This document shows positions 4,467 to 60,026 of a DNA stretch of 64,000 bases, piece after piece. Numbering within the stretch: the stretch's first letter is position 1; each line of letters begins with the position of its first letter. The position numbers and the translations under genes are program-made. This DNA comes from a virus. The DNA is taken from positions 11,009 through 75,008 of the IMG/VR virus record IMGVR_UViG_3300027881_000008. The stretch is one strand, 5' to 3'. Under the pieces are notes generated by a model. That model was not told the DNA's origin. It saw only the letters and a program-made list of their open reading frames with translations, and ran no database searches.

Positions 4467-5270
4467 ATCCCTAAATTGACAAATGTGCGAGAGCGCGTCC
4501 ATCAGCCCTTTCGCGATACCCTAGTGCGGACGGCCGGTACACAGACCGGTAACGTCAGTGACAACACCAAGCTGTTTACCGTTGCGGGTAAACCAGAAGG
4601 TGCAACGAACTTGCCCAACGGATCGACGCTTCCAAGCGATCAGTCGTTCGTCGTGCTGGCTCTGCGCGTCTTCACATGGTTCCGCAACAGCATCCAGCGT
4701 CCCATGCAGCAGGGCGCGGCCCCAGGCCGGCTCGTCATCCCGCTCCCCGACGGAACCACCATCTTCGCCGGCAACGGCGACTTCAACCTTCCCTTCGGCG
4801 GTGGCCCGGTCACCGGCGCTGCCTTCGCAGCCGTGCTGAACGGGCAGGGAATCGGAGACGTCAACGACGTTCACCGATTGAACTGGCAAGCTGAAGAGCA
4901 GCTCCTATGGAGCTACGGTGCGGGCGATAAATTCTCCCTCACATCCATGCCGTCAGCGTACTTCCCATATGGCGGCGGGCTTCACGGCCAATTGCCCTGT
5001 TCGACGGATTTGATTCTGTGGAACAACGGCATGCCGTCCCAAGAGGGCATCTTGCGTCTGGCAAGAGCAATCTTGATTCCCCCGCGACAGAATATCAAGG
5101 CGGAAGCCAACATTGCGCGCCTCGATACCGGCCCCAATGCGGCGACCCTCGCCACCACCCAGGGAGCGCGTGATATGTTCTCCCTTCGCGACAACCTCAA
5201 TGCCCCGGACCTCATCAACAAGGTTATTAGTCTGACCTTTGACGGCTTGTTCAGCCGCGACGTGCAGTGA
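4467..5270 (+). CDS. putative major capsid protein (single jelly-roll-like); probable ATC start (TTG 4476 alternative)
   Basis: Beta-rich; QPFRDT..LF..TNL..G.LP..QSFVVLALR at the N-terminus and a terminal strand ISLTFDGLFSR; flanked by a structured leader and a terminator; fold is inferred. Confidence 0.5.
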   Translation: MPKLTNVRERVHQPFRDTLVRTAGTQTGNVSDNTKLFTVAGKPEGATNLPNGSTLPSDQSFVVLALRVFTWFRNSIQRPMQQGAAPGRLVIPLPDGTTIFAGNGDFNLPFGGGPVTGAAFAAVLNGQGIGDVNDVHRLNWQAEEQLLWSYGAGDKFSLTSMPSAYFPYGGGLHGQLPCSTDLILWNNGMPSQEGILRLARAILIPPRQNIKAEANIARLDTGPNAATLATTQGARDMFSLRDNLNAPDLINKVISLTFDGLFSRDVQ

Positions 5271-5277
5271 GCCGTTA

Positions 5278-5420
5278 GCAGCGCGCCCGTTTTATATGCA
5301 GCAGAAAAAAAGTAGCAGAACATAACGGCGCGTTGCGCCACACCAAGTCGCCCGGCCTGGCAAGCGCGGGGCCTATTTTCGGGTCCCGACCAAAACCGGG
5401 TCGGGCGCCTCGGTTTTTTT
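5278..5420 (+). terminator. intrinsic terminator/attenuator region
   Basis: Long hairpin 5278-5336; stem AAAACCGGG/CTCGGTTTT running into T7 (5414-5420); competing CCCGACC/GGTCGGG stem. Confidence 0.6.
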
Positions 5421-5482
5421 CTCCGCCTCTTTTGGCGGTGTCGCCCCAGGCAAGACGCGGTCGTGGGGAATGAAGGAGCGTC

Positions 5483-6514
5483 ATGTACGGAAACCAATAC
5501 GACCCAGGCTTCGCCCAAGCAGTGCAGCAGCTGCGCGCAGAGATCAATCGCAACGCGGGCGGCCTTCGCAAGTACACCGACGAGCAGATGGCCAAGATGG
5601 TCGGACGCCTGGACGAGCTGAGCCGCGTGACCAGCGCCATGAGCGCCATCCGCTCGGGGGCCACCAAGGACCCGGGAGTGCGCCTCATCGAGGACATACC
5701 AGGGCGACGGGTGCCCTACGTCATGCTCGTAGATATACCCCTAGGTGCCGACACGACGAGCATTCGAGAAGGGTCCGTCACCATCTCTCAGGAGGGACCG
5801 TTCGTCGCCGTGCGTCGCATGGCCACCTTCCAGTCGGCCTACGAGTTCCAAGTCACCGACCCGGTGAGCAGCCAAGTGGCGCGTTTCGCAGGCCGGTCGT
5901 TCGGGCGCTACCGCCCCATTCACTCTGTCTGTGACACCAACGACAGTCAGCATAATGCGTGGTCCGACGCGAGCCGTTGGTACCTAGCGGCGCTCACCAA
6001 CCCCGACGCGGTGCCAGGCCCCGCGGCCGAACTTCCCTCGGCTGCGCTCAGTCTTCCGAGCAACATGTCGAGCTTCCGCACCATGGAGTTCGATGGGCGT
6101 ATCAGCGTCATCAACGCTGGCTCGAGCTACCCCCGCCAGAACATCAGCGTGCCGTCTAGCTTCTGGGCCAGCGAGTGCAACAGTCCCGTCACCCTAGGCG
6201 CTTTGGACTTCTTCGAGCGCGGTGAAGTGCTGACCGTTCGGGTTCAGCCCAACCATGTGTCGAATCCGCCAGCCGGAAACGTCGATGGCGACTGCATCTT
6301 CCCTAACGCGGCGGCCCCAGGTTGGCCCTTTGTCGAGGGCCAGTACGACTCGCACGAAGGGATTTGTACTCCCGACGCAAGCACCCTCGCTACCATCCGA
6401 CCGTTTGAGCCAGCCCTCATCGCCAACGACCCCGTGGCCCGGCTTCCTGACGGTATCCTCACTATCGCATGGGAAGGCTACCGAATCATTCAGCCTGTTG
6501 GGCCGGTTGGATGA
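5483..6514 (+). CDS. putative second capsid/penton-like jelly-roll protein with N-terminal coiled coil
   Basis: AAGGAG SD; beta-rich GPFVAVRRMATF...FFERGEVLTVRV...LTIAWEGYRII pattern parallels the previous gene. Confidence 0.45.
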   Translation: MYGNQYDPGFAQAVQQLRAEINRNAGGLRKYTDEQMAKMVGRLDELSRVTSAMSAIRSGATKDPGVRLIEDIPGRRVPYVMLVDIPLGADTTSIREGSVTISQEGPFVAVRRMATFQSAYEFQVTDPVSSQVARFAGRSFGRYRPIHSVCDTNDSQHNAWSDASRWYLAALTNPDAVPGPAAELPSAALSLPSNMSSFRTMEFDGRISVINAGSSYPRQNISVPSSFWASECNSPVTLGALDFFERGEVLTVRVQPNHVSNPPAGNVDGDCIFPNAAAPGWPFVEGQYDSHEGICTPDASTLATIRPFEPALIANDPVARLPDGILTIAWEGYRIIQPVGPVG

Positions 6515-7296
6515 GCCATATCCTCGACCGCCGTGCGCCGGAGCAGTTCATCCGTGAGCTGTCCCAAGAGGCGCGCCTCGTCCGTCAGGGCGCGGCAGGA
6601 CAGGAGGCCGGCCCCCCAGGGCTCGGTCCCGAGCCTGCGGTGGTCCATCAGCCGGGGGGCGAGCTCCTCAACAAAATCCAAGACCCGGCGTTCGATACGG
6701 TCGAGCATCTTTTTCGGGCGCTCCCCGAGGACAGTTGGTTCTCCCCTACCACCTCGACCAAGCGCCCCATCAAGTTCGAGTTCGGCGTCTTCACCGTTCC
6801 CCAGAGCCAGTATTTTCTGGTGACCGACTACGAGTTCGTGGCGCTTCGGCAGAGCGGCATCGACCCCTTCGACTTCATGCAGGCGGCGCCGTACCGCTTC
6901 AGCGGCTTCATGGGGTTCGACATCACGCTCGATGGCCGGCGCGTGAGTAACCTCATGTACCAGCTCGACCCCGCCCCAGTGCAGTTCTTCCGTCAGGCGT
7001 TCGCGTCGCCCTTCGATCCTCGCGCGCCCGCCGCGAGCTTCAACCAAGCTGCGGCCAACAGCTTCGGCGCCGTGGCCGGCGAGGGCACGTCGCTCTTGCC
7101 CGTCCGCCCCAACGTACAGGGAAGCCGGAACATGCCCTTCACCATGATCGCCGAGCCTGGCACCAAGGTTGCGCTCTCGTGCGTCATCTTCCGCCGCGTG
7201 ACTGCCGCTCTCGCGGGCCTCCAGGCGAGCGTGTCTGGCTACTCGATCCACGCCAACACTATGAGCGCACTGCTCAACCGAATGAGGCCCAGATGA
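6511..7296 (+). CDS. putative third capsid-like jelly-roll protein
   Basis: ATGA overlap; FEFGVFTVPQSQYFLVTDYEF...PGTKVALSC...ASVSGY beta pattern. Confidence 0.45.
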   Translation: MSHILDRRAPEQFIRELSQEARLVRQGAAGQEAGPPGLGPEPAVVHQPGGELLNKIQDPAFDTVEHLFRALPEDSWFSPTTSTKRPIKFEFGVFTVPQSQYFLVTDYEFVALRQSGIDPFDFMQAAPYRFSGFMGFDITLDGRRVSNLMYQLDPAPVQFFRQAFASPFDPRAPAASFNQAAANSFGAVAGEGTSLLPVRPNVQGSRNMPFTMIAEPGTKVALSCVIFRRVTAALAGLQASVSGYSIHANTMSALLNRMRPR

Positions 7297-7520
7297 TGCA
7301 AGTAGGACCGCCGCCGCGAGGGTTTTATGGGATGGGAACCGACCCGCTTCTGCCGGGAGTCGTCCTCCCTGACTTGCCCGGTTACGTGACCGAGGAAAAA
7401 TGTTCTGCGGCCCAGTTGTCGGCTGAAGAAAAAGCCAAGGGCAGCGTGCTTCCCTGGGCGATTGGCGCCGGAGTCGGCGCCCTGGTTCTAGGACTCGCCA
7501 TAGGAAGGATGAGCAAGTGA
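7293..7520 (+). CDS. small C-terminally anchored membrane protein (FYGMG motif)
   Basis: ATGA overlap; PGYVTEE motif; TM helix then GRMSK. Confidence 0.7.
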   Translation: MMQVGPPPRGFYGMGTDPLLPGVVLPDLPGYVTEEKCSAAQLSAEEKAKGSVLPWAIGAGVGALVLGLAIGRMSK

Positions 7521-7957
7521 TGTACGGACTTGGAGAAAATGGAGCGCCTCCGGGCGGACCACCACCGCCCCCCACCCCCGGTGCCCCACCGGCCATACCC
7601 ACGCCGATCCCCGGGGCCACGGACCAGGCGAGCTGCGCGCAGCACGGCGGAACCTGGCAGGGACTCCCCCCGCCTGCGCCGCCGGGAATGGGCGTGTGTC
7701 TATCGGGCGCGTTGCCCCCCATTCCTGGGGCTCCCCCCGTACCAGGTGGCCTTCCGGCTCTTCCTCCGGGAGTCCAGAAGCCGGAGATCCCGGGATACGT
7801 GACGAAGGAGCACTTAGCCGCGTCGCTTCAGGGCGCCGCCACGCAGTGCAACACCGCGCGCGCCGAATCCAGGCGCATGTCCATCTACGTGGCCGTTGGT
7901 GTCGGCTTGGCGGGCGTGCTCATCGGTGCCGTCGTCGGAAAGAACATGAAGAAGTGA
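7517..7957 (+). CDS. Pro-rich C-terminally anchored membrane protein (MYGLG motif); paralogue of 7293-7520
   Basis: PGYVTKE motif shared with the previous gene; TM helix then KNMKK. Confidence 0.75.
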   Translation: MMYGLGENGAPPGGPPPPPTPGAPPAIPTPIPGATDQASCAQHGGTWQGLPPPAPPGMGVCLSGALPPIPGAPPVPGGLPALPPGVQKPEIPGYVTKEHLAASLQGAATQCNTARAESRRMSIYVAVGVGLAGVLIGAVVGKNMKK

Positions 7958-7959
7958 GA

Positions 7960-8071
7960 TTGACGAGCCGCAAGAGCCGGGCCCTCGGTTTGGTGTTCCG
8001 GGGGCTGTCCGCAAAAGTGATGGCCTTCCTCAGCCGCTCCGGCCGGGAGCTCGACTCTTGCGGCTCGTCGA
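7960..8071 (+). ncRNA. long rod-like intergenic hairpin (RNA-processing site or small RNA)
   Basis: Perfect 15-bp inverted repeat 7962-7976/8055-8069 extended by wobble pairs, with an internal bubble and apical stem-loop. Confidence 0.55.
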
Positions 8072-8090
8072 AACACGCGGGGGAGGCGTA

Positions 8091-9029
8091 ATGTACCGCG
8101 GCATAGGCCGGCCGCTGGGCGCGACCACGCGGGGCCTCGGTGCCCGAGAGTGGGACGACGTCCAGGAGTGGTGTCCTGGGGTGTTTGTGGAGTCCGAGAA
8201 GGACTTCTGTCCTTTTTCGCGCGCGCTTTGGTCGACCGACGAGGTCTACGTCATGCGCTTCCATGTTACTGGACTCGACGGAGGCATTCAGACGGCCTCC
8301 CAGGGGCTCAGGTGGGCGAACGCTTACGGCAACACGCTCATGACGGCGTGCCTGCCCTTCGGCTGTCCTTCCATCGAACGCCAAGACGTCAAGGGGATCG
8401 TGTTTGACAGTCAGGGCGGACCGGGCGTCTACGGCGTCGACCTCGTCGTGACCACGCAGGAGGGCGGTGCGCCCGTCTTTGGTCAGCGGGGGGTGGAAGC
8501 TACCGTTAAGATGCTCAACAAGGACCCGGACCTGCTCAGCGTCTGGCCGAATTTGCACGTAAACGACTTCCAGCCTCTTCTGATGCTCGACGAGACGGCA
8601 GCGCAGAAGGCTAGGATCACCGACTGGCGCGCAGCGCCGACGGTTTGGAGCTGGGAGCTTTGGGAACAGAACGAGGACGCGCCCGAGAGGACCAGGGGAA
8701 AGACCGACGCCTACGGAAAAGGCGAAGGGGTCTGGCTCGGTGGGACGGCGGCGCACCCCCAGGCGCGGCTCAAGCCCAAGGCGCCCACCCCCGTCGGTCC
8801 TCCCACGCCCAAACCTCCCACGCCCAAACCTCCCACGCCCAAGCCTCCCACGCCCAAGCCTCCCGAGCCGGGACCGTTGCCTTCCAAGGCCGGCCTCAAC
8901 GCGGGCACCGTTGCGGGGGTCGCCCTGGTCGCCGGGGTTGGATGGTTCGCTTTCGGCACACGTATTCGAGACCACCTGAGTGGCAAGAAGCAAAAGGAAA
9001 AACAGCATGTCCTACAAAAGCCTTGGTAA
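8091..9029 (+). CDS. virion membrane protein candidate (MYRGIG; PPTPK linker; TM)
   Basis: GGAGG SD; globular domain, (PPTPK)x4, KAGL, TM helix, basic tail. Confidence 0.75.
   Translation: MYRGIGRPLGATTRGLGAREWDDVQEWCPGVFVESEKDFCPFSRALWSTDEVYVMRFHVTGLDGGIQTASQGLRWANAYGNTLMTACLPFGCPSIERQDVKGIVFDSQGGPGVYGVDLVVTTQEGGAPVFGQRGVEATVKMLNKDPDLLSVWPNLHVNDFQPLLMLDETAAQKARITDWRAAPTVWSWELWEQNEDAPERTRGKTDAYGKGEGVWLGGTAAHPQARLKPKAPTPVGPPTPKPPTPKPPTPKPPTPKPPEPGPLPSKAGLNAGTVAGVALVAGVGWFAFGTRIRDHLSGKKQKEKQHVLQKPW
8799..8864 (+). repeat. 15-bp coding tandem repeat (PPTPK)x4
   Basis: CCTCCCACGCCCAAR x4. Confidence 0.9.
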
Positions 9030-9681
9030 CCCGCTCGGGTCTTACTACGAGTTCAGCCCCCACCAGGTTTTCGACGGGGTGGGCGAGTATTACGAAACAG
9101 CGCCCATGAGCGGGCTGGGGTCTTACTACGAGTTCAGCCCCCACCAGGTCTTCGGCGCCTTCGGGGCCGAGACGACCTTCAACGCCCAACAGGTCTGGGC
9201 CGACGCCCAGCTCGGTGGGAGCTGCTTCACGCCGGGAAACCCGAACTGGAAGAACGAGGCGATGCTGGGCACCTGCAACGCCGCTGGCGGGCGCGCCACC
9301 CGCGAAATCCAAGCGGCACTGAACACTCTCGGCTACTCCACTCCGCTCGACGGAAGGTTCCAGGGGGCCACGAGGGCGAACTGGAACAAGTTTATGGCCC
9401 AGCACGGGCTCTCGAGCGCAATCGGAGAGGTGCAGGAGCAGGGTCTCTTGCTTATCGAAGACCAGCTGCGCCAGGGCATCACCCCGGGGCCGGACGAGCC
9501 TAGGAAGACCAAGAAGGTCAACGGCAAGTACATCCCCGTCAACGGCGACTCCAAGGCCGGACTGGGGGCGGTGGCGGCCGTCGCGCTCGTGGGGCTCGCT
9601 GCCTTTGGCGGGTACATGGTCTACAAGAAAAAGAAAGGCGGCGCTAAGTCGCGCCGCCCGTTGGTGAGACTGAAGCCGTGA
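9007..9681 (+). CDS. peptidoglycan-binding-domain membrane protein with two GSYYEFSPHQVF repeats
   Basis: REIQAALNTLGY..LDGRFQGATRA (PG_binding_1-like); KAGL-TM-KKKK. Confidence 0.7.
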   Translation: MSYKSLGNPLGSYYEFSPHQVFDGVGEYYETAPMSGLGSYYEFSPHQVFGAFGAETTFNAQQVWADAQLGGSCFTPGNPNWKNEAMLGTCNAAGGRATREIQAALNTLGYSTPLDGRFQGATRANWNKFMAQHGLSSAIGEVQEQGLLLIEDQLRQGITPGPDEPRKTKKVNGKYIPVNGDSKAGLGAVAAVALVGLAAFGGYMVYKKKKGGAKSRRPLVRLKP

Positions 9682-9687
9682 GAAAGA

Positions 9688-9915
9688 ATGGAAACGAAAC
9701 ACATCATCCAGGTTTTGGAAGCAGCCAACCAGGGCTCGCCTCAGATCCTGCATGCTGCGGGCCGCGTGTTCGGATTGGGCGAGGCGGAGCGGGATGCGCT
9801 GGCGAAGCGGACGTTTCCGGCTTGGGCGGCGGGACTGCTTGGGATCTCGGTGGGGATCCTAGCGGGCGCAGCCATACAGCGGCGTTGGCCGGGGAAGATC
9901 CTTCCGGGGGCCTGA
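9688..9915 (+). CDS. small membrane protein
   Basis: Single TM helix followed by QRRW. Confidence 0.65.
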   Translation: METKHIIQVLEAANQGSPQILHAAGRVFGLGEAERDALAKRTFPAWAAGLLGISVGILAGAAIQRRWPGKILPGA

Positions 9916-9916
9916 T

Positions 9917-10459
9917 ATGAGCTACGTAGGACTAGGAAACGCTTTCGGGTCGACTGTCTCGTTACCAGCAGGGTTCGACGCGGGTAAACTCCCCTATTGC
10001 GGCACTGTGCGGGCCCTTCAAACCACGTTGGGCGGCATCGGCTACGACGTCGGCAAGGTAGACGGTAAGTGGGGGACGAATACGGCCAAGGGGGCCACCG
10101 CCTTCGCGCAGGCTAAGGGTCTGAACGTGAGCGGAGGCATTACCAAGAACTTCTGTCAGGCGCTGCAGAGCGAGTGGGTGGCCTCGATGGCTCCCCCGAC
10201 TCCCTCTGTCCCAGCGCCCCCGGCTCCAGTGCCGGGAGCAAAGGAACCGCCACCGGCGGGAAGGCACCCGGCTCCCCCCGCCGAAAAGGGGGCGGGGCCC
10301 GATCGACTTGACGCCTCGGGTGGCGCGCCCCCACCCCCCGTCAAGGCTGGGCTCTCGACGGGCGCTAAGGTCGCAATTGGCGGCGCGGCGCTCGTGGTCG
10401 TCTTCGGTGTCGTGGCAATCGCCAGCGGCTACGCCGACAAAGGGAGAACATCGCGGTGA
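9917..10459 (+). CDS. peptidoglycan-binding-domain membrane protein (MSYVGLG)
   Basis: VRALQTTLGGIGYDVGKVDGKWGTNT...FAQAKGL; Pro linker; KAGLS-TM. Confidence 0.8.
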   Translation: MSYVGLGNAFGSTVSLPAGFDAGKLPYCGTVRALQTTLGGIGYDVGKVDGKWGTNTAKGATAFAQAKGLNVSGGITKNFCQALQSEWVASMAPPTPSVPAPPAPVPGAKEPPPAGRHPAPPAEKGAGPDRLDASGGAPPPPVKAGLSTGAKVAIGGAALVVVFGVVAIASGYADKGRTSR

Positions 10460-11679: not shown

Positions 11680-11688
11680 GAGACCCTC

Positions 11689-12378: not shown

Positions 12379-12381
12379 GCC

Positions 12382-13596: not shown

Positions 13597-13608
13597 TGAA
13601 GGAGTGAG

Positions 13609-29870: not shown

Positions 29871-30398
29871 TTGGAGCCGCAGAAACGAAACTGGATCTAC
29901 GGCGGCCTGGCGCACCCTCCGAGCGTGGCTCTGGCCCACCCTCGCACGCGCCGAAGGCTGCCGCCGGGGAGCACCCTGCTCGTGGCGGGCGACGACCATG
30001 CGTGGGGTCTTGCTCCTTTTCTCAAGCGGCTGGGGGACGACTCGAAGGTGACCACCGTGGTGGACGTCCAGCCCCAGGGGGCCGAACTGCGCGCCTGGAC
30101 CAAGTCGGGCCGCCTGGGGGCGGTGGCTACGCGCACGCAGCCTACCATCATCTTGTTGAGCCTCCCTTTTGCTGCTTCTTGCGAGGCGGACCTGGCCGAG
30201 CTTCGGCGCCAAGCGGGTGCGGCCACTCTGGTCTGGGTACGGCCGCCAGGGAGCGAGCCGGGGCTCCGCCGGGCGCTCGACCGGGCGAAGGTCCCTTCTT
30301 TCCATTCCGAGGCCCTTCCCATCCCCACCGCAGGCAGCGCCGTCACTGCTCGTGGGTACGCGGGATGGGCCGGCGCCCTTTGGCGTTGGATCGGGTAA
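29871..30398 (+). CDS. SGNH/GDSL-fold-like protein, apparently degenerate
   Basis: LLVAGDDHAWGL (GDS motif altered), PTIILLSL, LVWVRPP, TARGYAGWA. Confidence 0.55.
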   Translation: MEPQKRNWIYGGLAHPPSVALAHPRTRRRLPPGSTLLVAGDDHAWGLAPFLKRLGDDSKVTTVVDVQPQGAELRAWTKSGRLGAVATRTQPTIILLSLPFAASCEADLAELRRQAGAATLVWVRPPGSEPGLRRALDRAKVPSFHSEALPIPTAGSAVTARGYAGWAGALWRWIG

Positions 30399-30745
30399 TC
30401 CCCCTGCGACCTCTCGGCAACGCCACCGGAATGCGCTACGATGCGGCTCGCATGGACAATTGTGGGCCAGACGGGCGCTACCGGCCCGGAGACAGCCAGG
30501 CCCCGGTCGACATATGGACTGGTTGGCACGCGGCCATCGGGGTGGCGTACGGAGCCGTAGGGGTGCCGTGGGAGTACGCGTTGGGCGCTTCGGTCCTGTG
30601 GGAGGTGGTGGAAAACCCCCTGAAGGACCGGCTGCCGGAGGTCTTCCCCGACGCTTGCCACGACACGCTCGGCAACGCGGTAGCCGATGTGGCGGCCGTG
30701 ATGGTAGGATACGCTCTGGGGCGGTATTGGAGAAAAGGACGCTGA
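30398..30745 (+). CDS. small integral membrane protein (possible ATC start; ATG alternatives downstream)
   Basis: DIWTGWH...LWEVVE...GNAVADV H/E/D-containing helices; TAATC overlap. Confidence 0.6.
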   Translation: MPLRPLGNATGMRYDAARMDNCGPDGRYRPGDSQAPVDIWTGWHAAIGVAYGAVGVPWEYALGASVLWEVVENPLKDRLPEVFPDACHDTLGNAVADVAAVMVGYALGRYWRKGR

Positions 30746-33006: not shown

Positions 33007-33614
33007 GGGGCCTCTCCCGGCTCATCGGCGACCACGGCCCACTCCGCCCAATAGGCGTCTACGCCTTGAGCCCGTGAGCGGATCTCGTCCGCGCTCCACT
33101 CCAACGCCTCGCGGTTGCCGCCGGCGAGGTTGGACACGAACCGCTCAGAAGAGAGCGGGGACGGGGGGCCCGACGAGGCGAGCACGGCGACGACGACGTG
33201 GGTGACGCCATCCTCTACGTGCTCAACGAACTCCTCGCCCTCCGCGTCGACATCCGGGTCGGCCCCGTAGGCGTCCAGGCTGTAGACGACAACGGCCAAG
33301 CTGTCCGTCTGGGCGGCGTGGGCCCGGCGGAGGAAGGCGTCCGTCCGCCCCCGGTGCTCCCGCACCACGAAGTCGGCCGGGTCGCGCCCGACGCGGCTCC
33401 CAACGCCGGCCGAAACCGCTCGGTGCGCGCGCTCTGGGAGTGGCAGGAAGTGCTGGCCCGGGACGCGGTCCTCGCTCGGGTCGTGCGCCTCCAGCGCGAG
33501 CGCCAACTCGCCAAAAAAAGCGGCCCGGTCGACGACCCGACTCCCGACGACGCTCGCGTCGAAAGCTGAGCAAACGGAACTGACTCCGAAGCTGAAACGG
33601 TGCTGGTCGGTCAC
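33003..33614 (-). CDS. conserved hypothetical protein (DUF3228-like)
   Basis: AGGAGG SD; LAVVVYS...THVVVAVLA...FVSNLAGGN. Confidence 0.55.
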   Translation of the reverse strand: MTDQHRFSFGVSSVCSAFDASVVGSRVVDRAAFFGELALALEAHDPSEDRVPGQHFLPLPERAHRAVSAGVGSRVGRDPADFVVREHRGRTDAFLRRAHAAQTDSLAVVVYSLDAYGADPDVDAEGEEFVEHVEDGVTHVVVAVLASSGPPSPLSSERFVSNLAGGNREALEWSADEIRSRAQGVDAYWAEWAVVADEPGEAP

Positions 33615-41227: not shown

Positions 41228-41478
41228 CCGAGCGCCGCTACCGCGGTCGCGTCTACGTCCAGATCGACCCCGGCGAGCTGGTCGAGGGCGACGTGGTCGA
41301 GTACCAGGACCGCGGCTTCCGCGTCGGCCGCGTCGAGGCCGTCCACCACGGCCGGAAGCGCCACTGGGTCCGGGTGGCGGCCATCACCTACAACGGCGCG
41401 GTGGTGCGCCCCCGGCGCAAGTTAGAGCTGCGCGAGGTGCAGACCGCCTGGCGGCGCCGGACGGAGGCGGGGTCGTGA
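41224..41478 (+). CDS. small beta-barrel hypothetical protein
   Basis: GGGAG SD; ELVEGDVV motif. Confidence 0.55.
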   Translation: MTERRYRGRVYVQIDPGELVEGDVVEYQDRGFRVGRVEAVHHGRKRHWVRVAAITYNGAVVRPRRKLELREVQTAWRRRTEAGS

Positions 41479-42239
41479 GCATCGTCGACAAAGTGGCTGC
41501 CCTCCTGCGTCTCGCCGAGGGGCGCGGGACCACCGCAGCGGAAGCAGCGACGGCCGCGAGCGTCGCCCAGCTGCTCATGGCGCGGCACCGCATCACGCGG
41601 GCCGAACTTCACAGCGGTGACCCGGACCCGATCCGCCACCACCTCGAGCCCCTGCACGAAGGCGCGCGGCTGGTGAGCTGGCGCCGCCGGCTGATCGCAG
41701 GGATAGCTCGAATAAACGGATGCCGCGTCGTCATACGCCAGCGTGGCAGCTGGCGCTCGCTCGAACTCGTGGGGCGCGACGGCGACGCCAAGGTCGCTCG
41801 GTATCTGGTGGAATACGTCGCCCGCGAAATCGACCGCCTCGCCCGTCGAGCTGTCGCCGAGCGGCGCGAACTGGGGGCGGCGGGAGGCGCACGCGCCTTT
41901 GGCAGCAGCTTCCGCCTTGCCGCTGTCGCCGAAGTGGTGGGGCGGCTGGAGCGCGACACCCGCGCAGCGCCGGCGGGCACGTGCGTAGCGATCATAAACG
42001 TCGCGAGGGACGGAGAGGCGCTCGACAAGTTCGTCGCGTCGGTGGCGACCGGCACCGAGGCGCGATGGTCCCCCAGCGGCGAACAGGACCGGGGCGGACG
42101 CGCCGCTGGCCGCAGAGCAGGCCGTTCGCTCCCGCTTCGCCGCGGGGTCCCCGGCGGCGACGACGCACCGCCACGGCCGCTTCTTCCGCAGAAGTGTTGC
42201 CCCCCTGGCAACACTTGCGATACAAGGGGTGAGTCATGA
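41475..42239 (+). CDS. DUF2786-domain protein
   Basis: DKVAALLRLAE...EAATAASVAQLLMARHRI. Confidence 0.85.
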   Translation: MSIVDKVAALLRLAEGRGTTAAEAATAASVAQLLMARHRITRAELHSGDPDPIRHHLEPLHEGARLVSWRRRLIAGIARINGCRVVIRQRGSWRSLELVGRDGDAKVARYLVEYVAREIDRLARRAVAERRELGAAGGARAFGSSFRLAAVAEVVGRLERDTRAAPAGTCVAIINVARDGEALDKFVASVATGTEARWSPSGEQDRGGRAAGRRAGRSLPLRRGVPGGDDAPPRPLLPQKCCPPGNTCDTRGES

Positions 42240-48243: not shown

Positions 48244-48834
48244 ATGAAAATGGAATTGATGTTCCCCTCGAAATATCTGCGCGCTGTCGACCTCGACGGC
48301 GAGCGCCTGGTAACAATCGCCGACGTCGTCATGGATGAACTCGTCATGCGAGGAGGTCGGCGGGAGGAAAAGCCGGTCATCCACCTGAAGGGGGACGACA
48401 AGATGCTCGTCCTCAACAAGACGAACGCAGAGACCATCGCCGGCTTGTACGGAGGCGAGAGCGACGAGTGGCGAGGGAAGGAACTCGTTCTTTTCCCGAC
48501 CGACGTCACGTTTGGTCGCGAGCGGGTGCTCGCGATCCGGGTGCGCGCTCCTGGGGGCGCAAAGCAGGCCGAGAGCGGCGCTCCTTTTGGCGCCGACGAG
48601 GACGACTGGGCGGCTGCCGACGCCGAGGGGGCGCCTGACTGGTTCGGAGAGGTGGCCGCGTCCCTTTGGCTGCCGTTGGCCGCCGCCTTCGACGCAGACG
48701 AACTCGCGCGCACGGGGAGCGCCGTGAAAGAGGCTTGGGGGCGCAAGCGGATCAACCAGAACGAGCGCGACGCGCTCAAGAAGAAGTTCGTGGAGGTGCG
48801 CCGCGCTCTCCACAATGAGAGAAACTCCGCGTAG
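48244..48834 (+). CDS. putative phage ssDNA-binding (OB-fold-like) protein
   Basis: FPSKYLRAVDL...LVLNKTNAETIAGLYG...W.GK...AIRVR; acidic linker; function inferred. Confidence 0.6.
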   Translation: MKMELMFPSKYLRAVDLDGERLVTIADVVMDELVMRGGRREEKPVIHLKGDDKMLVLNKTNAETIAGLYGGESDEWRGKELVLFPTDVTFGRERVLAIRVRAPGGAKQAESGAPFGADEDDWAAADAEGAPDWFGEVAASLWLPLAAAFDADELARTGSAVKEAWGRKRINQNERDALKKKFVEVRRALHNERNSA

Positions 48835-48854
48835 GAGGTGGTAGGCTGGCTTTC

Positions 48855-51800
48855 GTGAGCCAAGCCGCTATCGACATCCACCGCCCCGAGGCGCAGTTAA
48901 GCCGCACGGTGTTGGAGCTAAAGCAGCTCGCGACCGTGTGGGGGAGGAGCGCCAAGGGGCGGAGCTATGTGGAGGCACTTCTCACGTTCCTCAACCGAAA
49001 GCAGAACCACAACACTCAGCGGGCGTACGCTTTTGGTCTTCTTGAGTTCTTCGGCTGGTACGAGCTGAAAAAGGGACGGACGCCCCTGCCCGAAGAGGTA
49101 CGGCGCGTAGACGCGTATGCGTTCAGCGATTACCTGCAGAAGCGAGACATTGGGCTCGACGAGCAGCGCCTTGCCCAGGACCCGGACCACGCGCTTGACC
49201 TCGCCATCTACCGTTACGTCAAGGGTCACCCGTCGGCGCGGATTAGCGCCATCCGCAAGAAGCTCGTCGCGGACCACCGGTTCACCCAGACTGTCGAGTT
49301 CGAGGCTGGGGGCCGCAAACAGAGCCTGCGGGTGCTCAGCATCGAGGCCGATGACCTTCGTGGCGACGCCTTGGCGGCCTACGTTGCGAAGCACGGCTTC
49401 GCTCCGCCGGACCCCCTCGACGAGCGCCTCGCGTGCATGGTCGACCACAACCTCTTGCGCAGGACCCCGACGATACGCCGCGTACGAAGCGGCGACGCCG
49501 GACTCGGCCTGGAGCACCCGAGCCGCGCCCAGCTCGACTTCCGTGTCGACCCCGAGGTTTTCTCGTATTTTGTGGACGTCCACACCACCGCGTCTGGCGC
49601 CGAGCGCGCCAATAGCGTAGTGACCCGGCTCAGTGCGTTAGCGAGCTTCTGGACCTACCTGATCACCGAATCAGCGGAGAACGCCGCGGGGAGCGAGCCC
49701 CTCCTCAAACACAACATTTGGACCGAGCCCCGCGCGCAGCTCATGGGCGCAGCCAAGAGCCGCAGCCGTGCCTCGCGCGAGCTGAAGACGCCGTCTCGTG
49801 AGCTGTTTTTAAGGGTCTTGGCGACGACGTTCGTGCGCAGTCACGAGGGCCAGGAGCTGCAGGCGGCCAGCGCGTTTCTCGAAGGCGCCGACGTCAGCGG
49901 GTCTTCCAGCGGGGAGGCCGGCATTTACGACCTGCGTGACCGGGCGCTGATGGTTTTCGCCTATTGGACCGGCGCGCGCGCCGAGGAGATGCGGTCGCTG
50001 TCTCGCGACGCGGTGCAGCCTGACGGCCTCGTAACGGTGCTGGGGAAAGGAGACAAAACCCGTTCTTTTGCCGTGCCCCCTCCGGCTCTGCGCGCGATCT
50101 CCGACTTCCAGGCAGAGCTTGACGCAAGGTCCGAGGGTTCGTCCGACCCCAATGCCCTGGTCCACAAGCTCACCGCGTCCGCGGCGCCGCTGTTCCCGCC
50201 CCTGAAGCTTTGGGGCCACAACCGAGGAGCCCAGTTGGTGGGACTCTCCGCCGACTCTTTCTCGAAGATGATGCGGCACCGGGGCCTCCGCGCAGGGGTG
50301 GGGCGACAGAGCGCCGAGTGGAAGAAGCTCCACGCCCATGGGGTGCGACACCTGGCCGCGCTCGAAGCCCGGCAAAGGGGGGTCGACCTCGCCACCATCC
50401 AGGGCACCCTCGGTCACTCCAGCCTGTCCACCACGGGGATCTACATCGAGGTGCGCGACCCCCTGAAACGGTCTCTCATGCCTGCGCGCTCCGCCCCCGG
50501 CGGCGCTCCCCCCTTCCAGCGGCGCGCCCCAGGGCACGAGCACCCCGAGGCGGAGGAGGTGATCGAGGAGATAGAGATCGACGAAGAGCCGGGGCTGGTC
50601 GGGGTGGGCGGCCAACCCGAGGTCCCACCTGGCCTCTACGAGGAGGACGAGGAAGCTGGCGACGAGCCTTTCCCACTTGATGAAGAGGAAGAGGAGGCGC
50701 CCGAAGAGGACGCCCTGACGCTCGTCCACCGGGACGCCGAAGAACTCGTGGCGGAGACCGATGCGGTCGAGAAGCTTCTCCAGGTCTACCGGAGCAACTG
50801 GGGCGAAACGGGGAAGCGGGCCAAGCTGGTGGATGCGAAGGGCCTGTTGGGGAGCACGTACGCGGGGCGACCTACGGGGCTTCCGTGGTGGCAGGGCGCG
50901 GCGGGCGCTATGAACGCCTCCTACTCCTACGTTCCCAACGAGGCAGAGACGACGAAGTTCCCGGCCATGCCAGTGATAGGGCCCCAGCAATTCGTGATGG
51001 AAGCCGGGTGGGGCGAAGAAGACTGCGACGAGCCTCTCTGCCAGGCGCTCGGCGAGCTTTATTCGCAGTGGCTCCAGGACCCCGAGCGCGGGCCCACAGC
51101 CGCGGCGGCGTTGACAGAATGGATCTTCACCTCAGCGATGGTGACGCTCGAAGTGGATGCGGTGGTGCGCGAGCGGTCAGGCCACTGGGTGGCGTTCGAC
51201 TCCCCGCTCGAAGACACAAAGAGCGGCCAGGGAAAGCCTCGGGTGTTGCGCGAGCACCTCAACGACGCTGTGGTGAGCTGGTTCGAGCGGACGGCATGGC
51301 AGTTCCGCCGCAGCGCCGACAGCGCCACCGCTCGCGGCTCCGAGCTCACCGTCCCTGCCTGGTACTCAAAGAAAGACCCGCTGCTCGACATCCCCGCTCC
51401 TGAGCGCGCCGAACTCATCGACTGGCTGCAGGTTTTCGTGGGCCTTCCCCCACTCGACAAGACGCCGCGCTTCGACCACGGCGCCTCGCGGGCCAAGGTG
51501 GGAAAGCTGCTGGGCACCCTGTGCGCGTACGACACTCTGGCGACCGACCCCGACCGCACCCGCAAGCGCGAGCAAAAAGAGATCCTCAGCGCCGTGGAAG
51601 ATCAGATCACCGCCGACGTGAAGCGAGCAACCAAGGGGCGCGTCGCGGATTTCCGCTACGGCGACACCAAGAAGCGCCGCAAGATCGAAACCGTCCAGGC
51701 CGAAATGGCGCGCGAAAAATCCAAGAGAGAGGGCAGCGAAGAAGCCGCCGAGGCTTCTACCAAATACTCGAAATACCTTGCGACCCACCTCATGGAGGTC

Positions 51801-52924: not shown

Positions 52925-52982
52925 AGGTGGAGCCCTGGACGCGAGGCAATCGGACAGGCTTTTGAGCGCGCTCCGAGAGCAC

Positions 52983-53414
52983 TCACGGGAGTGCGGAGGA
53001 GTGGTGGTTGGCGATCTGCCAATGGCCCGTGCGGGAGGGGTCGACGAGGACGTAAGAGAACCTGGCGGCTGCGCTGTTCGATGGAGGCCAGCGAAAGTGG
53101 TAGAGCCCGGAGACCACCACCGCCCCGCCGGGTAGCGACTGCACGACCACCGTCGTCGGGTCGATGGCGCCGCACAGGCCGGGACGCTCACCCAGGAAAC
53201 GGACGAAGTATGCCCCGATGGCCCGGTGCCCCTGAAGGACCTCAGACCCGAAGGTAGGGATGAGAACGGCGCGCCGGCCGTACAGGCTCAGGGGCGAAGC
53301 CGGGTCGCCGCTGCACACCGCGCGCATCCACCGCGAGAGGAACGCAGTGGCGGCCTCCTCCCGCTGTCCCTGGTTGTGGAGGAGCACTCCCTGCCTTCCG
53401 TATGTGGCGCTCAT
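52983..53414 (-). CDS. NTF2-like (DUF4440/CaMKII-association-domain-like) protein
   Basis: W..AV.SGDP...LY...AVLIPTF...IGAYFVRFL...SGLYHF...ARFSYV...WQIANHHSSALP. Confidence 0.85.
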   Translation of the reverse strand: MSATYGRQGVLLHNQGQREEAATAFLSRWMRAVCSGDPASPLSLYGRRAVLIPTFGSEVLQGHRAIGAYFVRFLGERPGLCGAIDPTTVVVQSLPGGAVVVSGLYHFRWPPSNSAAARFSYVLVDPSRTGHWQIANHHSSALP

Positions 53415-55009: not shown

Positions 55010-55695
55010 CGCGAGGAAGAGTACAACGACGAGGCCACGTAGCCAATGGCCACCCCTAGGACCAAGGGCACAAAGAAGGGAAGGGGCGCCTCGGAGCCCG
55101 GCGGGGGAGACACAGGAGGGCCGGGCTGAGGCGGCACGGGGGGAGTCGGCCCGGGGGCGCCGAGATGGGGGTAGAGCGACGTCTCAGCTGCGGCGCCGGA
55201 AGGCGAGAAGGTGATGTGGACGTGGTCGCGATGGGGGCTGGGGCCGTTGTAGGGGCGCCACTCTTTGGAACCGGCGCTCCAAATGCGACGGTCCCAGATG
55301 ACGTACCGAATGCCTGCTCGACGGAGGTTAGCGTGGGGCTCCCCGTTAGGGCCTGGAGCGAAGAGCCAGTGGAAGAAGAGGTTCACCCGCTCGACGTCGG
55401 CAGGGTTGTTTACGTTGACTTTCCAGTCCCAGGCGCGCCCCTCGTTGTGCTCGCTCTTTGCGGGCTTCCCCTCGCACCCGCGACAAATCCCGCTGTCGCC
55501 ACCGCCTAGGTGTTCCAAGATGAACTTGCGGAAGAGCACAGCGCCGGGCTGGGGTCCCTTGAGACACTTCGTAGCCTTCACCGACGTGGCGTACCCGTCC
55601 ACGGGCCCCGGGAACGAAGGAAGGGCTCCCGTGGGGGCGAGCCCGACCAAATCCTTGGGGAAGAACATGCAAGCTGGTCGGGAAAGGTCGGGCAT
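55006..55695 (-). CDS. zinc-peptidase-like (M15-type) cell-wall hydrolase with C-terminal TM
   Basis: SEHNEGRAWDW (HxxxxxxD), HRDHVH; Pro linker + TM; AGGAGGA SD. Confidence 0.75.
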   Translation of the reverse strand: MPDLSRPACMFFPKDLVGLAPTGALPSFPGPVDGYATSVKATKCLKGPQPGAVLFRKFILEHLGGGDSGICRGCEGKPAKSEHNEGRAWDWKVNVNNPADVERVNLFFHWLFAPGPNGEPHANLRRAGIRYVIWDRRIWSAGSKEWRPYNGPSPHRDHVHITFSPSGAAAETSLYPHLGAPGPTPPVPPQPGPPVSPPPGSEAPLPFFVPLVLGVAIGYVASSLYSSSR

Positions 55696-55704
55696 TGCTC
55701 CTCC

Positions 55705-58275
55705 TTAAAACAGGTCTGCGTCCACCCACTCGATTGTGGGGAACGCCCGCTGACGGGGGTTCTGGCTCATTTCGGCCAGCCCATCAGTGAGCCCAAACAT
55801 TCGCCCAAACACGTAGTCCTCGGCTTCGTCCTGCGTGAGGTCGAGTCCGTCGATCCGCTCGGCGATGGTCGCCTGTTTGTCGACCAGCATGGCGGCGATC
55901 ACCCCGTCCACCGTGTTCTCTGCCTGGATATAGGTGATAGTGCATTTGTTCTCCTGCCCGATCCTCCAGATACGGTCCTCGGCCTGCACCTGGTCCATGG
56001 GCCGCCAGGTACGCTCGAGGAACAGAGTCTCGCTAGCGGCGGTGAGAGTGAGCCCCGCGCCCGCCGCGGGTATCGAGCAAACCAACACGTCGAGTTCGCC
56101 GGCTTGGAAGGCGTCCTTGTACGCCGTACGGCGAGCTTCCGCGACGCCTCCAATGATCTGGCCGACGCGGAGCTTTCGGGTGACCCCGGCGTGCTCGACC
56201 TCCGTCTCCTTCAAGAGCTTGGTCAGGCCCTCGGTGACGTCGCGGTGGTAGGCCATCACCACCAACGGTCGGCCCGTGGATTCGTAGTGGCCCGTGATCC
56301 ACTCGACCGCGTAGGGGATCTTTCCCACGGCGGCGAGCTTGCGCAGAGCGGTCATCTTGGTGATCGCTTGAGCGCGCATGTGTTTCTCCACCGCCTCGGG
56401 ACCGCCTTTGGTTCCCACCCAGTCGATGAAATCCTTAGCCGCCCGCTTGTACTCTTTAGCGGTCTTAGGCTCCAACGCGATGAGCTTGGTCTGGCGTGAC
56501 TTAGGAGGAAGGGGCAAGATGTCCTTGGTCCTGCGCAACATGTAGTTCTCCGTCAGCACCGAGAACAGTTCCTTGCCGTTGCTGGCGCCGTCGAAGTTCC
56601 ACGTCTTGATGATGCGCCCGCCCCGGCAACGGCTGCGTGCGCAGGAGGCGGGAGGCTTGAAGCAGCGCCCGCATTTTGTTTCGAGGACGCCGTCGCAATA
56701 GCGAAGACCGAATTTTTGGTAGCTATCCCACCGCTCAGCGTCCAAAAAGTGCAAAAGAGGCCAAAGCTCCTTGGGACGGTTCATGAGCGGGGTAGCCGTG
56801 AGTAGGAAGACGCGCCCGGCGTCCTGCGACAGCTCGATGAACGCCTTGGCTCGATTGCTTCCCACGTATTTGCCGCGCTGCTGGCGGAGAGTCTTTAGGT
56901 AATGCGCCTCGTCAGCGATGAGGGTGGCGATCCGAAGCTTGCCCAACATTTTTGCGTGGGATGGGAGCACGTCGTAATTGATGACCACAACGTCAGCGGC
57001 CTTGTACTTGGCCAGCTTGTAGGGTTTGCGCCCCGCCACCACCATTACCGAAAATTCGCTGCGCCACTTCCCCATCTCGCGAAGCCATTCGACTCGTAGG
57101 GTGGCGGGGCACACCACGACCACGGGGGCGTCGGCTGCGACGCAAGCTTGGAGCGTCTTGCCTAGACCCGGCTCGTCGGCCAACAGCCCGCTGCGCTTCT
57201 TGTCGAGCCAGCTGATCCCTTCGACCTGGTACGGAAAGGCCACAGATGGAACGGAGCGGGCAGGAGCAGACGGCGCCGGCGCTGGCGCGTTTTCTTTCTT
57301 AGCGTCGGCGGAGGCCGCCTTCAGTTCGGACTTCTGGTCCTTGTCGTTGGAGACCATCTTCAGCTCGCGGTACGAGAAGAAGGTGAGCCCCCCGCTCACG
57401 CCCTTGTAGCCGAGACCCACGCGGGGCGACCCGTCGCGGTTCGTCCCCACCCATCGCACTACGCCCTCGCGGCCCTCGGGGTCGATTACCCGCTCCCCCT
57501 TCTGGAGGGCCTTGCGGGCCTCCTCGATGGTCCAGGCGTCGGTCTCGTTGGTGGCGCTCGTCGGAGGCCCCGCAGGAGGCGTCACAGGCGGAGGAAACTG
57601 CACGTCCCGGGGCACCACCGCCATGTTCCCCTCGAGGTCAAGCATGAGCTGGCCCGCGAAGGCGACGCTAAGAGCGGCGATGAGGTGGTCGATCTTATCT
57701 TCAGGTACGCACCACACCTTCTGGTGGCCCACCCACACGCGCCCGGGAACCGACTTCACCGCCTTGATGAAATCGGCGTTGAAGGGAGTCTTCGCACAAA
57801 TCCTTCCGGGCCCGACACGCACCAGCTTGATCTCGGAACCGGCGCGCTGGCCTTCGACGTAAAAGGAACGAAAGCGCCCAGCCGTTGCCCAGAAGCCGCA
57901 CCCCGCGGCGACCTTCTCGGCGGCGGCCACGACCACCTTCCAGTCGGGCCCCGTGTAGCTCGCCGCCATCGCCGCGTGCCAGATCGCTTTGTTGGTTGCC
58001 GCGCGGTAGTCGCCGACCGAGGCGGCGCTCGCAATGGAGGCTCGCATCTCCTCGGGAGCCATCGCGATCCCCTGGGCCAAGAGGTCCAGGTCCGGAGACC
58101 CCACCTCGCCGGCCTCCACCCCGAACTTCTCCTCGCAGATCGGGCCGATGCCCAGTTCGACGCTTCGCGCGTCGCGGAGCGGCCGGTTGCACATGCAGCA
58201 GTGAGTCGCCAGGAGCTTGGTCGATACAGCGTCCTCGTAGCCGTTTGGAGTGTAGGGGGCCTGCGTCACTGTCAT
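55705..58275 (-). CDS. SNF2/SMARCAL1-like helicase with N-terminal DUF6011-like zinc finger and HARP-like domain
   Basis: CCMCNRPLRDARSVELGIGPIC; PFNADFIKAVKSVPGRVW; ADEPGLGKT, DEAH, QAEDRIWRIGQ. Confidence 0.92.
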   Translation of the reverse strand: MTVTQAPYTPNGYEDAVSTKLLATHCCMCNRPLRDARSVELGIGPICEEKFGVEAGEVGSPDLDLLAQGIAMAPEEMRASIASAASVGDYRAATNKAIWHAAMAASYTGPDWKVVVAAAEKVAAGCGFWATAGRFRSFYVEGQRAGSEIKLVRVGPGRICAKTPFNADFIKAVKSVPGRVWVGHQKVWCVPEDKIDHLIAALSVAFAGQLMLDLEGNMAVVPRDVQFPPPVTPPAGPPTSATNETDAWTIEEARKALQKGERVIDPEGREGVVRWVGTNRDGSPRVGLGYKGVSGGLTFFSYRELKMVSNDKDQKSELKAASADAKKENAPAPAPSAPARSVPSVAFPYQVEGISWLDKKRSGLLADEPGLGKTLQACVAADAPVVVVCPATLRVEWLREMGKWRSEFSVMVVAGRKPYKLAKYKAADVVVINYDVLPSHAKMLGKLRIATLIADEAHYLKTLRQQRGKYVGSNRAKAFIELSQDAGRVFLLTATPLMNRPKELWPLLHFLDAERWDSYQKFGLRYCDGVLETKCGRCFKPPASCARSRCRGGRIIKTWNFDGASNGKELFSVLTENYMLRRTKDILPLPPKSRQTKLIALEPKTAKEYKRAAKDFIDWVGTKGGPEAVEKHMRAQAITKMTALRKLAAVGKIPYAVEWITGHYESTGRPLVVMAYHRDVTEGLTKLLKETEVEHAGVTRKLRVGQIIGGVAEARRTAYKDAFQAGELDVLVCSIPAAGAGLTLTAASETLFLERTWRPMDQVQAEDRIWRIGQENKCTITYIQAENTVDGVIAAMLVDKQATIAERIDGLDLTQDEAEDYVFGRMFGLTDGLAEMSQNPRQRAFPTIEWVDADLF

Positions 58276-58592
58276 ACCCCGTTGTTTTTGGCGACGACGA
58301 ATGCGGCGTACAGTTGTTCGTAGACGCCGAGCAAAAGGTTGGCGTCCTTGAGCAGGTCCCCGCCGCGAGGACTGTCGCCCTTGATGCGAGCGGAAGCTTC
58401 GGCCTTGGACCCCGCCGCGGTCAGGACGGCATCGCAGAGCGCCAGGATAGGCTCGGCGAAGCCGTGGGCGTCCCCGTCGCGATGGAGCGCAGCGGCCAGC
58501 TCCCGCACCCGCTTGGGGCGGCTGGCGAGGAGCGTCTCGTTTACCCGGAGGGCCTGGGTGATCTGGGACGAGGTGTTGCGGGTGTCGACCAT
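58272..58592 (-). CDS. hypothetical helical protein
   Basis: ATGA-coupled to the helicase. Confidence 0.6.
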   Translation of the reverse strand: MVDTRNTSSQITQALRVNETLLASRPKRVRELAAALHRDGDAHGFAEPILALCDAVLTAAGSKAEASARIKGDSPRGGDLLKDANLLLGVYEQLYAAFVVAKNNGV

Positions 58593-58594
58593 GG

Positions 58595-59068
58595 CTAAAT
58601 GTCGATCACTTCCCAGGGGACGTCCACCCCCACGCCGTCGTCCCCCACCACGGGAGACCCAAAGGCGCTGCGGAGGTCCCTAGAAATGGCTCGGGAGAGG
58701 AGGACGAGCTGGAGCATCTCGGGGTCGCTGAGGCCCCCGGCTCCGAGCGCCCCGGTGCGCTCGTTCATGTAGTTGGTCCCCCAGATGACGTTGAACTCGA
58801 TGTTCTGCCGCTTGGGAGCGCTCAGCTTCACCTTGGCGAGCGCGCCGAAGATGGCGCCTCTAGCCATCACCATGCGGGCGCCTATCCACCGAGCGGCGCA
58901 GGACTCGAAGGTGCCCGCGTGAACGGCGGGGGGCGCGCGGAACGAAAAACGACGAGCCGGGGGTTGGCGAAGCGCCGGCGCAGCGAGAGAGCGCCACGGT
59001 GAGCTTCGCGGGCGGGCCAAATGGAGAGCCATCTTGTGCTTAGTCGGGATGGGCAGGATAGGGACCAT
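58595..59068 (-). CDS. hypothetical protein
   Basis: AAGGA SD; fills the operon gap. Confidence 0.5.
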   Translation of the reverse strand: MVPILPIPTKHKMALHLARPRSSPWRSLAAPALRQPPARRFSFRAPPAVHAGTFESCAARWIGARMVMARGAIFGALAKVKLSAPKRQNIEFNVIWGTNYMNERTGALGAGGLSDPEMLQLVLLSRAISRDLRSAFGSPVVGDDGVGVDVPWEVIDI

Positions 59069-60026
59069 GAGCTTTCCTTTCGCGCCTTGTAGCAGGCGCA
59101 GAGTCGCGGACCAGGGGGACGTCCAGACCTAGCCATTGCGGAGAGATCACCACCATGTTCCCTGGGTCGGTGATGGCGAAGTCCCAGTCGTCAGGGTCGG
59201 CGTAGTCGCCTGTTGCTTCGTCCCAATCGTCCCCCACCTCTCCCACGTTGCCGGGATGGACATCGGAGAGGACCATCCCCTTGTCTAAGTAGTAGCGAAG
59301 GGCGGTGCCAACGGACGACCCGAGAACGAGTTTCGTCATCATCTCGCTCACCTGATAGAGGCGGTGAACCTCCCAAGCGAGCCTATCAGTGAGGGCCAGG
59401 AACTCCGCGTTTGTGGGGTGGTCTAGGTCCATGATGTCCAGCGAGACAAACGGGCGCTCAGGGGGCGCCGCCTCTTGCACGCGCTCCCAGAGCCGGCGCA
59501 CAAGGGGCTCCCGTTCCGGCCACGCCAACATCAAGTCAAAGACGTTGCCCGCGTGGGCCAAGAAATCGTAGAGCAGGGCGACGAAGGCGCCTACCGATTT
59601 GGGGCCCGCCGTATTTTTGTATTGCCTCACACGCTTCCCGGCCGCCCCAAGAACGCCCACGTTGAAAGCCTCTTCGCGCCATACCAGAAACACAGGCCGG
59701 TGCTCGAACTTCTCGGGAAGCGCCAGCGCCGTGTAGTACTCCACGATCCCCGGAGGCCAGATCCCCTCAGCGCGTGCAAGCTCCATTGCGCCCTGGGCGA
59801 AGAACGCTTCGCTGCCGTCGGTCGTGATCTTGAGGACGGTCCCGGGGTCGCCCGTCGCCAAGACGCACCCGTAGGCGCCGCAGCCGAGTTCTTCCATCAC
59901 CCCGCCGGTCTCGACGGGCAGCGGCCCCGCCTCGGCAGACGCAACGATGGCGTCCCAGTTGCGCGCGAGCATCTGGTCCACCCAGTCGGGGTTGGGCTTC
60001 GCCCTTTTCTTCTTCCGCTTGGGGAT
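59040..60026 (-). CDS. protein-kinase-like (PK/APH fold) enzyme; probable ATC start
   Basis: LGCGAYGCV, VLKIT..SE, SDVHPGNVG, ITDPG; GAGGAG SD 6 nt before ATC 60026. Confidence 0.8.
   Translation of the reverse strand: MPKRKKKRAKPNPDWVDQMLARNWDAIVASAEAGPLPVETGGVMEELGCGAYGCVLATGDPGTVLKITTDGSEAFFAQGAMELARAEGIWPPGIVEYYTALALPEKFEHRPVFLVWREEAFNVGVLGAAGKRVRQYKNTAGPKSVGAFVALLYDFLAHAGNVFDLMLAWPEREPLVRRLWERVQEAAPPERPFVSLDIMDLDHPTNAEFLALTDRLAWEVHRLYQVSEMMTKLVLGSSVGTALRYYLDKGMVLSDVHPGNVGEVGDDWDEATGDYADPDDWDFAITDPGNMVVISPQWLGLDVPLVRDSAPATRRERKAHGPYPAHPD

Follow-up and report, generated by a model that had tools for sequence, protein, structure and literature searches.

Near-cognate initiation has been measured for all 64 codons in Escherichia coli, where UUG supports initiation at 10–100% of the level of AUG and AUC at 1–2% (Hecht et al., 10.1101/063800), and in Sinorhizobium meliloti an ATC-initiated upstream open reading frame (uORF) before hfq has been described from ribosome profiling together with a weak reporter signal (PMC13285730). 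The E. coli genes infC, which encodes IF3, and pcnB start at AUU. Here we describe candidate ATC initiation codons in an uncultured marine phage, within a window of 64,000 nucleotides (nt) that comprises the whole stretch of DNA analyzed, bases 11009–75008 of the single 75,008-base virus record IMGVR_UViG_3300027881_000008 (~65% G+C). A first-pass annotation of this window had proposed repeated ATC initiation at four sites, one of them the start of a putative major capsid gene. We located all four ATC triplets at the positions it gave, but repeated ATC initiation mostly failed on closer analysis, leaving a single credible case, a protein-kinase-like gene on the minus strand that probably starts at AUC 60026 (we put the probability at roughly 0.65). 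The features of this locus are as follows.

60024–60026, minus strand: ATC, at which the kinase-like gene is proposed to initiate, based on sequence, homologue N-termini, the coding switch and contigs from other studies
60033–60038, minus strand: GAGGAG, a Shine-Dalgarno (SD)-like motif 6 nt before the ATC
60028–60294, minus strand: small upstream open reading frame (ORF) with a hydrophobic stretch, 83–88 amino acids in public calls
59040–60026, minus strand: protein-kinase-like gene, 328 codons when counted from the ATC

The TGA of the small upstream ORF (60030–60028) ends 1 nt ahead of ATC 60026, and the GAGGAG is encoded by two rare codons of that ORF, CGA and GGA, which account for 10% of Arg codons and 15% of Gly codons, respectively, in the codon usage of the genome. 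The spacer of 6 nt compares with 4–8 nt at the genome's strong starts. This arrangement of SD-like motif, stop and ATC had been described correctly in the first-pass annotation, which did not mention that the kinase frame stays open further upstream, where it contains GTG 60101 and TTG 60113. These two codons and ATC 60026 are the only in-frame candidates upstream of a conserved NPDWVD motif in the predicted protein; between the upstream stop (60028) and this motif there is no ATG, GTG or TTG, and the ATC is the sole near-cognate codon. The coding potential of the kinase frame turns on exactly at the upstream stop. Over the 18 codons from ATC 60026 to ATG 59972 the codon score was +7.2, with a third-position G+C content of ~0.95, whereas upstream of 60030 the score of this frame was negative (−3.7 from TTG 60113 to 60027) and that of the upstream ORF frame over 60113–60027 was +2.4.

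Comparison with homologues places the start in the same region. In nearly all kinase homologues 4–16 codons separate the start from a conserved NPxW(V/T) motif, which in the window is the NPDWVD that precedes both GTG 59981 and ATG 59972; the starts of the more distant relatives are ATG, GTG or TTG. In the AlphaFold model of the protein (predicted local distance difference test score, pLDDT, 88.9), residues 11–30 were modelled at a pLDDT of ~93, and a helix at residues 14–22 would be cut by either downstream start. Because the model is confident over residues 11–30, we take the N-terminal motif to be part of the fold. Contigs from four runs belonging to four other studies, at least 99% identical to the window over the stretch compared, carried ATC 60026 and the SD-like motif unchanged, together with 11 other differences in 2.4 kb. 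ATC 60026 is no error; it is an allele fixed in a widespread population. Near-identical DNA to positions 58500–61500 (at least half of sampled words) was present in runs from 14 studies dated 2018–2025, with sample types that included seawater, marine, cold seep and several organism-labelled samples, and no RNA runs were listed among those carrying this stretch.

From the geometry, conservation and coding signal at this locus, we infer use of the AUC, its reading as Met and a low level of the kinase. In the mechanism we envisage, a ribosome would be positioned by the GAGGAG 6 nt upstream of AUC 60026, probably delivered by translational coupling to the small ORF, whose end lies 1 nt ahead of the AUC, and initiator transfer RNA (tRNA) would place Met at the AUC with low efficiency, so that little kinase would be made. 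The predicted RNA fold of positions 59986–60085 on the minus strand (−31.3 kcal/mol, z = −2.3) pairs part of the GAGGAG inside the final portion of the upstream ORF, while the AUC falls in the loop (7 nt) of a hairpin with a stem of 5 bp (GCUUG-ACAUCCC-CAAGC); such a fold would fit translational coupling. The AUC may serve deliberate control of the kinase-like gene. It is conceivable, though we regard it as doubtful, that near-cognate starts recur in this marine-phage kinase family and act as a built-in throttle. Such a throttle would draw on the fixation of the AUC in the population and on three relatives (P0006, P0013 and P0014) that look as if they too were without a canonical start, and the predicted SD hairpin would tie expression both to translation of the upstream membrane-protein ORF and to the stringency of the host's IF3.

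The assignment of the gene product as kinase-like rests on an alignment of 48 sequences, in which G48/G50/G53, K66, E73, D255/H257/N260 and D287-P288-G289 were invariant, corresponding to the hallmarks of a Gly-rich loop, a Lys, a Glu, a DxHxxN loop and a DPG motif. The leading Foldseek matches of the model were all protein kinases or aminoglycoside phosphotransferases (E-values from 6e-4), and the predicted structure matches a fold of the eukaryotic protein kinase/aminoglycoside phosphotransferase type. A search of PDB sequences with the kinase profile returned no matches, nor did a pattern search of viral contigs built from the single protein. The public calls of P0006 (66% identical), P0013 and P0014 begin at a Met aligned with ATG 59972, without the conserved NPxW N-terminus of their relatives, and a canonical start may also be absent from these genes. 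The gene neighbours of the relatives' kinases showed no homology to those of the kinase-like gene in the window. The sole kinase-family match in species-representative genomes (L115, CAIKNO010000226.1, a Sandaracinus sp. metagenome-assembled genome; 33% identical) has a GTG start behind GGAGGTG. This hints weakly at a myxobacterial host, or else at a binned phage contig, and is not enough for naming the host.

The capsid-like gene on the plus strand led to a different outcome. Its two relevant features are as follows.

4467–4469, plus strand: ATC where the jelly-roll capsid-like gene had its ancestral start and homologues have ATG or GTG; the base is repeated in a second contig
4476–5270, plus strand: capsid-like gene as read from TTG 4476, which is most likely its start today

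As the first-pass annotation had stated, ATC 4467 follows an in-frame stop (TAG, 4401–4403) with no ATG or GTG between them, and there is no TTG in this interval either; downstream lie TTG 4476 and GTG 4485, of which the public call uses the latter. We aligned 84 capsid-like starts, drawn from two IMG/VR relatives and 79 metagenome loci and representing 69 distinct contexts. The codon aligned to 4467 was ATG in 74, GTG in seven, ATC in two (the window and contig L107) and ACG in one. With ATG or GTG at this codon in 81 of the 84, we concluded that the ATC replaces an ancestral start. The encoded N-terminus, M-(A/P)-K-L-T-N-V-R-E-R, is almost invariant among the homologues. L107 is a separate 3.2-kb contig that is 99.8% identical to the window, with two mismatches and one gap over 3218 nt, and since it carries the same ATC the base at 4467 is not an assembly error.

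A canonical start able to take over is present three codons downstream of the lost one. TTG occupies codon 4 in both lineages with a non-canonical first codon, the window and a 63% identical capsid relative (L050:4995, OBEQ012740144.1), compared with six of 67 distinct contexts that have a canonical start (Fisher's exact test, one-sided p = 0.012). This relative has ACG at the family start position, an independent second loss of the canonical start. The TTG is derived in both lineages, because codon 4 is CTN or TTA in the 11 nearest relatives of each. The capsid-like gene has a purine-rich leader for which no pairing is predicted, and residues 1–4 of the protein model have a pLDDT below 50 and are disordered. 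These sequence comparisons make TTG 4476 the likely start of the capsid-like gene, and we hold this with rather more confidence than the AUC start of the kinase-like gene. The ancestral ATG has been lost (it is now ATC 4467) and the start has most likely shifted three codons to TTG 4476, which would yield a protein three residues shorter at its flexible N-terminus, while some initiation at the degenerate codon may persist. With the public call, GTG 4485, six conserved residues are lost, and that start probably lies too far downstream. The homologue alignment proposed in the first-pass annotation did show ATG at the ancestral position, yet the TTG three codons on looks like a replacement for it, so that the homologues favored the very alternative which that annotation had named as contrary to its claim.

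The capsid-like protein is 264–267 residues long and was modelled as a beta sandwich (pLDDT 80). The best structural match of the model was the SPV1 capsid protein (Z 6.9, root-mean-square deviation 3.9 over 135 residues), and many further jelly-roll coat proteins matched at Z 5–6, below the level that stands out. Set against the single jelly-roll capsid proteins of membrane-containing tailless viruses, whose fold has eight strands, this is suggestive of a jelly-roll coat-type protein and is not conclusive, and we prefer "capsid-like" to the earlier "major capsid" label. Tandem capsid-like copies were observed in L002 (1641–2834), L045, L046, L047 and L056, with one of the copies in L002 bearing a Cys-rich insertion of ~130 residues in a surface loop. 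Upstream of the capsid-like gene, at 4415–4446, we observed a hairpin, AGCGG-AACCAGG-CCGCT, for which relatives retain the loop (AACCAGG, AACCAAG or AACCAGA) while the stem covaries (GGGG/CCCC, GAGG/CCTC). It is followed by an A-rich run and an ACGG(T/A)AG motif ~27 nt before the start; relatives at a greater distance carry GGGACGACACCC instead. An Rfam search of 4300–4520 gave no matches. The hairpin may be a late-gene regulatory element.

The remaining two sites proved to be ordinary ATG genes.

30365–30745, plus strand: gene for a small membrane-like protein, starting at ATG 30365; ATC 30398 is an internal Ile codon
23388–24068, plus strand: Nudix-domain gene, starting at ATG 23388; ATC 23403 is its internal codon 6

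At the first of these, the TAATC overlap reported in the first-pass annotation is real (TAA 30396–30398, ATC 30398–30400), but the frame is open far upstream and an in-frame ATG at 30365, 11 codons before the ATC, had been overlooked; further in-frame ATGs lie downstream at 30431 and 30452. Coding potential shifts from the frame of the upstream gene to that of 30365–30745 around 30370–30400. The public call (P0102, 126 residues) starts from ATG 30365, and the closest relative (P0098, 88% identical by BLASTP) begins MGRR at the equivalent place and does not have the six residues IPLRPL, the segment that holds ATC 30398. Another relative starts at a Met aligned with ATG 30452. We rejected ATC 30398 as a start on the evidence that ATG 30365 is used by both the public call and the closest relative. 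At the second site, ATG 23388 lies in frame five codons upstream of ATC 23403, just as had been noted, with AAGGA 11 nt upstream of it and a Nudix match from residue 7, and a public collection holds an identical 226-residue protein for this record (P0004) from that ATG. ATC 23403 was rejected as a start and is an internal Ile codon. The ATC-CCN pattern that had been remarked on does hold at three sites and is explained at two only, where homologues begin (M)PK... or (M)xAPK....

The annotation's further suggestion, a host with relaxed initiation, was not borne out across the genome. We used a rough gene model based on codon usage (~72 ORFs), which served only to place gene junctions, and nearly every modelled gene had an ATG, GTG or TTG no more than a few codons away from the preceding stop. 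Of all codons in the genome 2.2% are ATC, which was found behind SD-like motifs 41 times against 44 expected, showing no enrichment; several in-frame ATCs near the ~85 gene junctions are therefore to be expected. ARAGORN, also at a relaxed threshold, found no tRNA of initiator type that would carry the anticodon GAU, its one doubtful prediction being a tRNA-Gly (GCC) at 3955–4031 on the minus strand, within a plus-strand gene of 803 residues, which is probably spurious. Since canonical starts are near-universal, ATC is not enriched and no initiator-like tRNA was found, a host with relaxed start-codon use is unsupported, and the phage and its host otherwise use canonical starts. Among other ORFs that seemed to be start-less, 41388–42233 and 33078–33569 are probably shadow ORFs, cast by genes in a different frame or on the other strand, and 60596–62971 really begins at ATG 62407, which overlaps the stop codon of the gene before it. 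For the gene of a 1198-residue recombinase-like protein, AGGAGGTG was observed within 48832–48857; an in-frame CTG (48846) follows it after 5 nt, and GTG 48855, the start in public calls, after 14 nt. CTG 48846 is a possible further non-canonical start, which would add three residues.

DNA and protein searches of the INPHARED phage collection returned no relative of the window, and a PHROGs search with eight window proteins gave no matches. Pfam identified the Nudix domain, a tyrosine-recombinase domain in the 1198-residue protein, two SNF2 helicases and a GP88 domain, and had no match for the kinase-like, capsid-like and 30365–30745 proteins. The two related genomes, G001 and G002, have in common with the genome of the window the structural module alone, and the kinase is absent from both.

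Several observations weigh against the starts we favor. The genome contains many GAGGAG motifs (97 copies, 0.00065 per nt), and one would fall at a working distance from a given codon by chance in ~0.4–0.9% of cases, so that the SD argument is worth only ~p = 0.01. In-frame GTG 60101 and TTG 60113 exist upstream of ATC 60026, gene callers picked ATG 59972 for the kinase-like gene (P0005, 310 residues), and the DNA-level comparison of this gene was limited to strains more than 99% identical, which are too close to reveal selection on the codon. At the capsid-like gene, the relative with ACG has a strong SD, TAAGGAG, 9 nt before the ACG and 18 nt before the TTG. One could suppose, then, that neither ATC is used, with the capsid-like gene starting at TTG 4476 or GTG 4485 and the kinase-like gene either truncated, from ATG 59972 or GTG 59981, or extended, from GTG 60101 or TTG 60113. 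The public calls (ATG 59972 and GTG 4485) are of this kind, P0006, P0013 and P0014 are likewise called from the equivalent internal Met, and AUC initiates poorly in E. coli; yet a downstream kinase start cuts a conserved helix modelled at high confidence and leaves 18 strongly coding codons untranslated, while the upstream starts have no SD, run through a region of negative coding score and would add 29 residues that have no counterpart in any kinase homologue. They would also overlap the upstream ORF by 74–86 nt. We judge disuse of both ATCs to be unlikely, albeit the alternative that deserves the most attention; for the kinase-like gene taken by itself, a start at ATG 59972 or GTG 59981 seems to us improbable, and one at GTG 60101 or TTG 60113 more improbable again.

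The opposite supposition, that ATC 4467 and ATC 60026 are both working initiation codons used for translational control, accords with their lying exactly at the start positions of homologues, with the fixation of each in more than one assembly and with the SD of the ACG-bearing capsid relative, whose spacing suits the degenerate ACG and not the TTG. A capsid, however, is needed in bulk, whereas in E. coli AUC works at ~1–2% of the AUG level, and replacement is indicated by the derived TTG that both lineages without a canonical start have at codon 4; we give this little credence, slightly less than we give the upstream kinase starts. The kinase-like gene might need no start codon at all if a +1 frameshift near the stop of the upstream ORF fused the two, as at the prfB (RF2) site, which this locus resembles in having an SD-like element (GAGGAG) just before an in-frame UGA and the downstream gene in the +1 frame; some kinases of the family (L020–L022 and L033) are indeed fused to long N-terminal regions. 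The differences from prfB are such that we consider this very improbable: the frame-0 codons read GGA GCU UGA, placing GCU rather than the slippery CUU U in the P-site, the SD abuts the frameshift site instead of standing 3 nt away, close kinase homologues start independently at the equivalent point, and the fused relatives show no similarity to the upstream ORF of the window. Finally, each ATC is one base away from ATG, and assembly or sequencing errors could be supposed, the former having been raised in the first-pass annotation, but with ATC 4467 repeated in L107 and ATC 60026 in contigs of four other studies, this explanation is already refuted as far as the assemblies show. Taken site by site, an AUC start for the kinase-like gene, TTG 4476 for the capsid-like gene and two ordinary ATG genes form the account we find the more probable one as a whole, a little less securely than its kinase component.

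These starts have practical consequences. Gene finders permit ATG, GTG and TTG only, with the result that 18 conserved residues of the kinase-like protein, forming half of an N-terminal helix, and six residues of the capsid-like protein are lost, and expressing or modelling either protein from the public calls would give truncated forms. A fixed, natural AUC behind a strong SD in a widespread marine phage would also be a case for start-codon checking outside E. coli. Neither the kinase AUC nor the capsid turnover alters current understanding.

Both loci have parallels in known systems. Start-codon turnover, in which a start is lost and a nearby in-frame start gained, is a general evolutionary pattern, for which we know of no named family. 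The capsid-like gene would be a clean example of it, with the ATG lost and a TTG gained three codons downstream, twice independently within one family, as judged from the 69 distinct homologue contexts. The kinase-like gene resembles the hfq uORF of S. meliloti in combining an ATC start with a GC-rich bacterial background, and differs from it in that the start there belongs to a 19-residue regulatory uORF and here to an enzyme of 328 residues (PMC13285730). It also resembles infC and pcnB of E. coli, with which it shares a near-cognate AUH codon behind a normal SD where relatives have AUG, and with which it would be expected to share low-level decoding as Met by the initiator tRNA, subject to checking by IF3. 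The codon is AUU in those genes and AUC here, in a phage kinase-like gene that has no link to IF3 and begins 1 nt after a stop. An AUC start for the kinase-like gene would be a further case of the known near-cognate starts.

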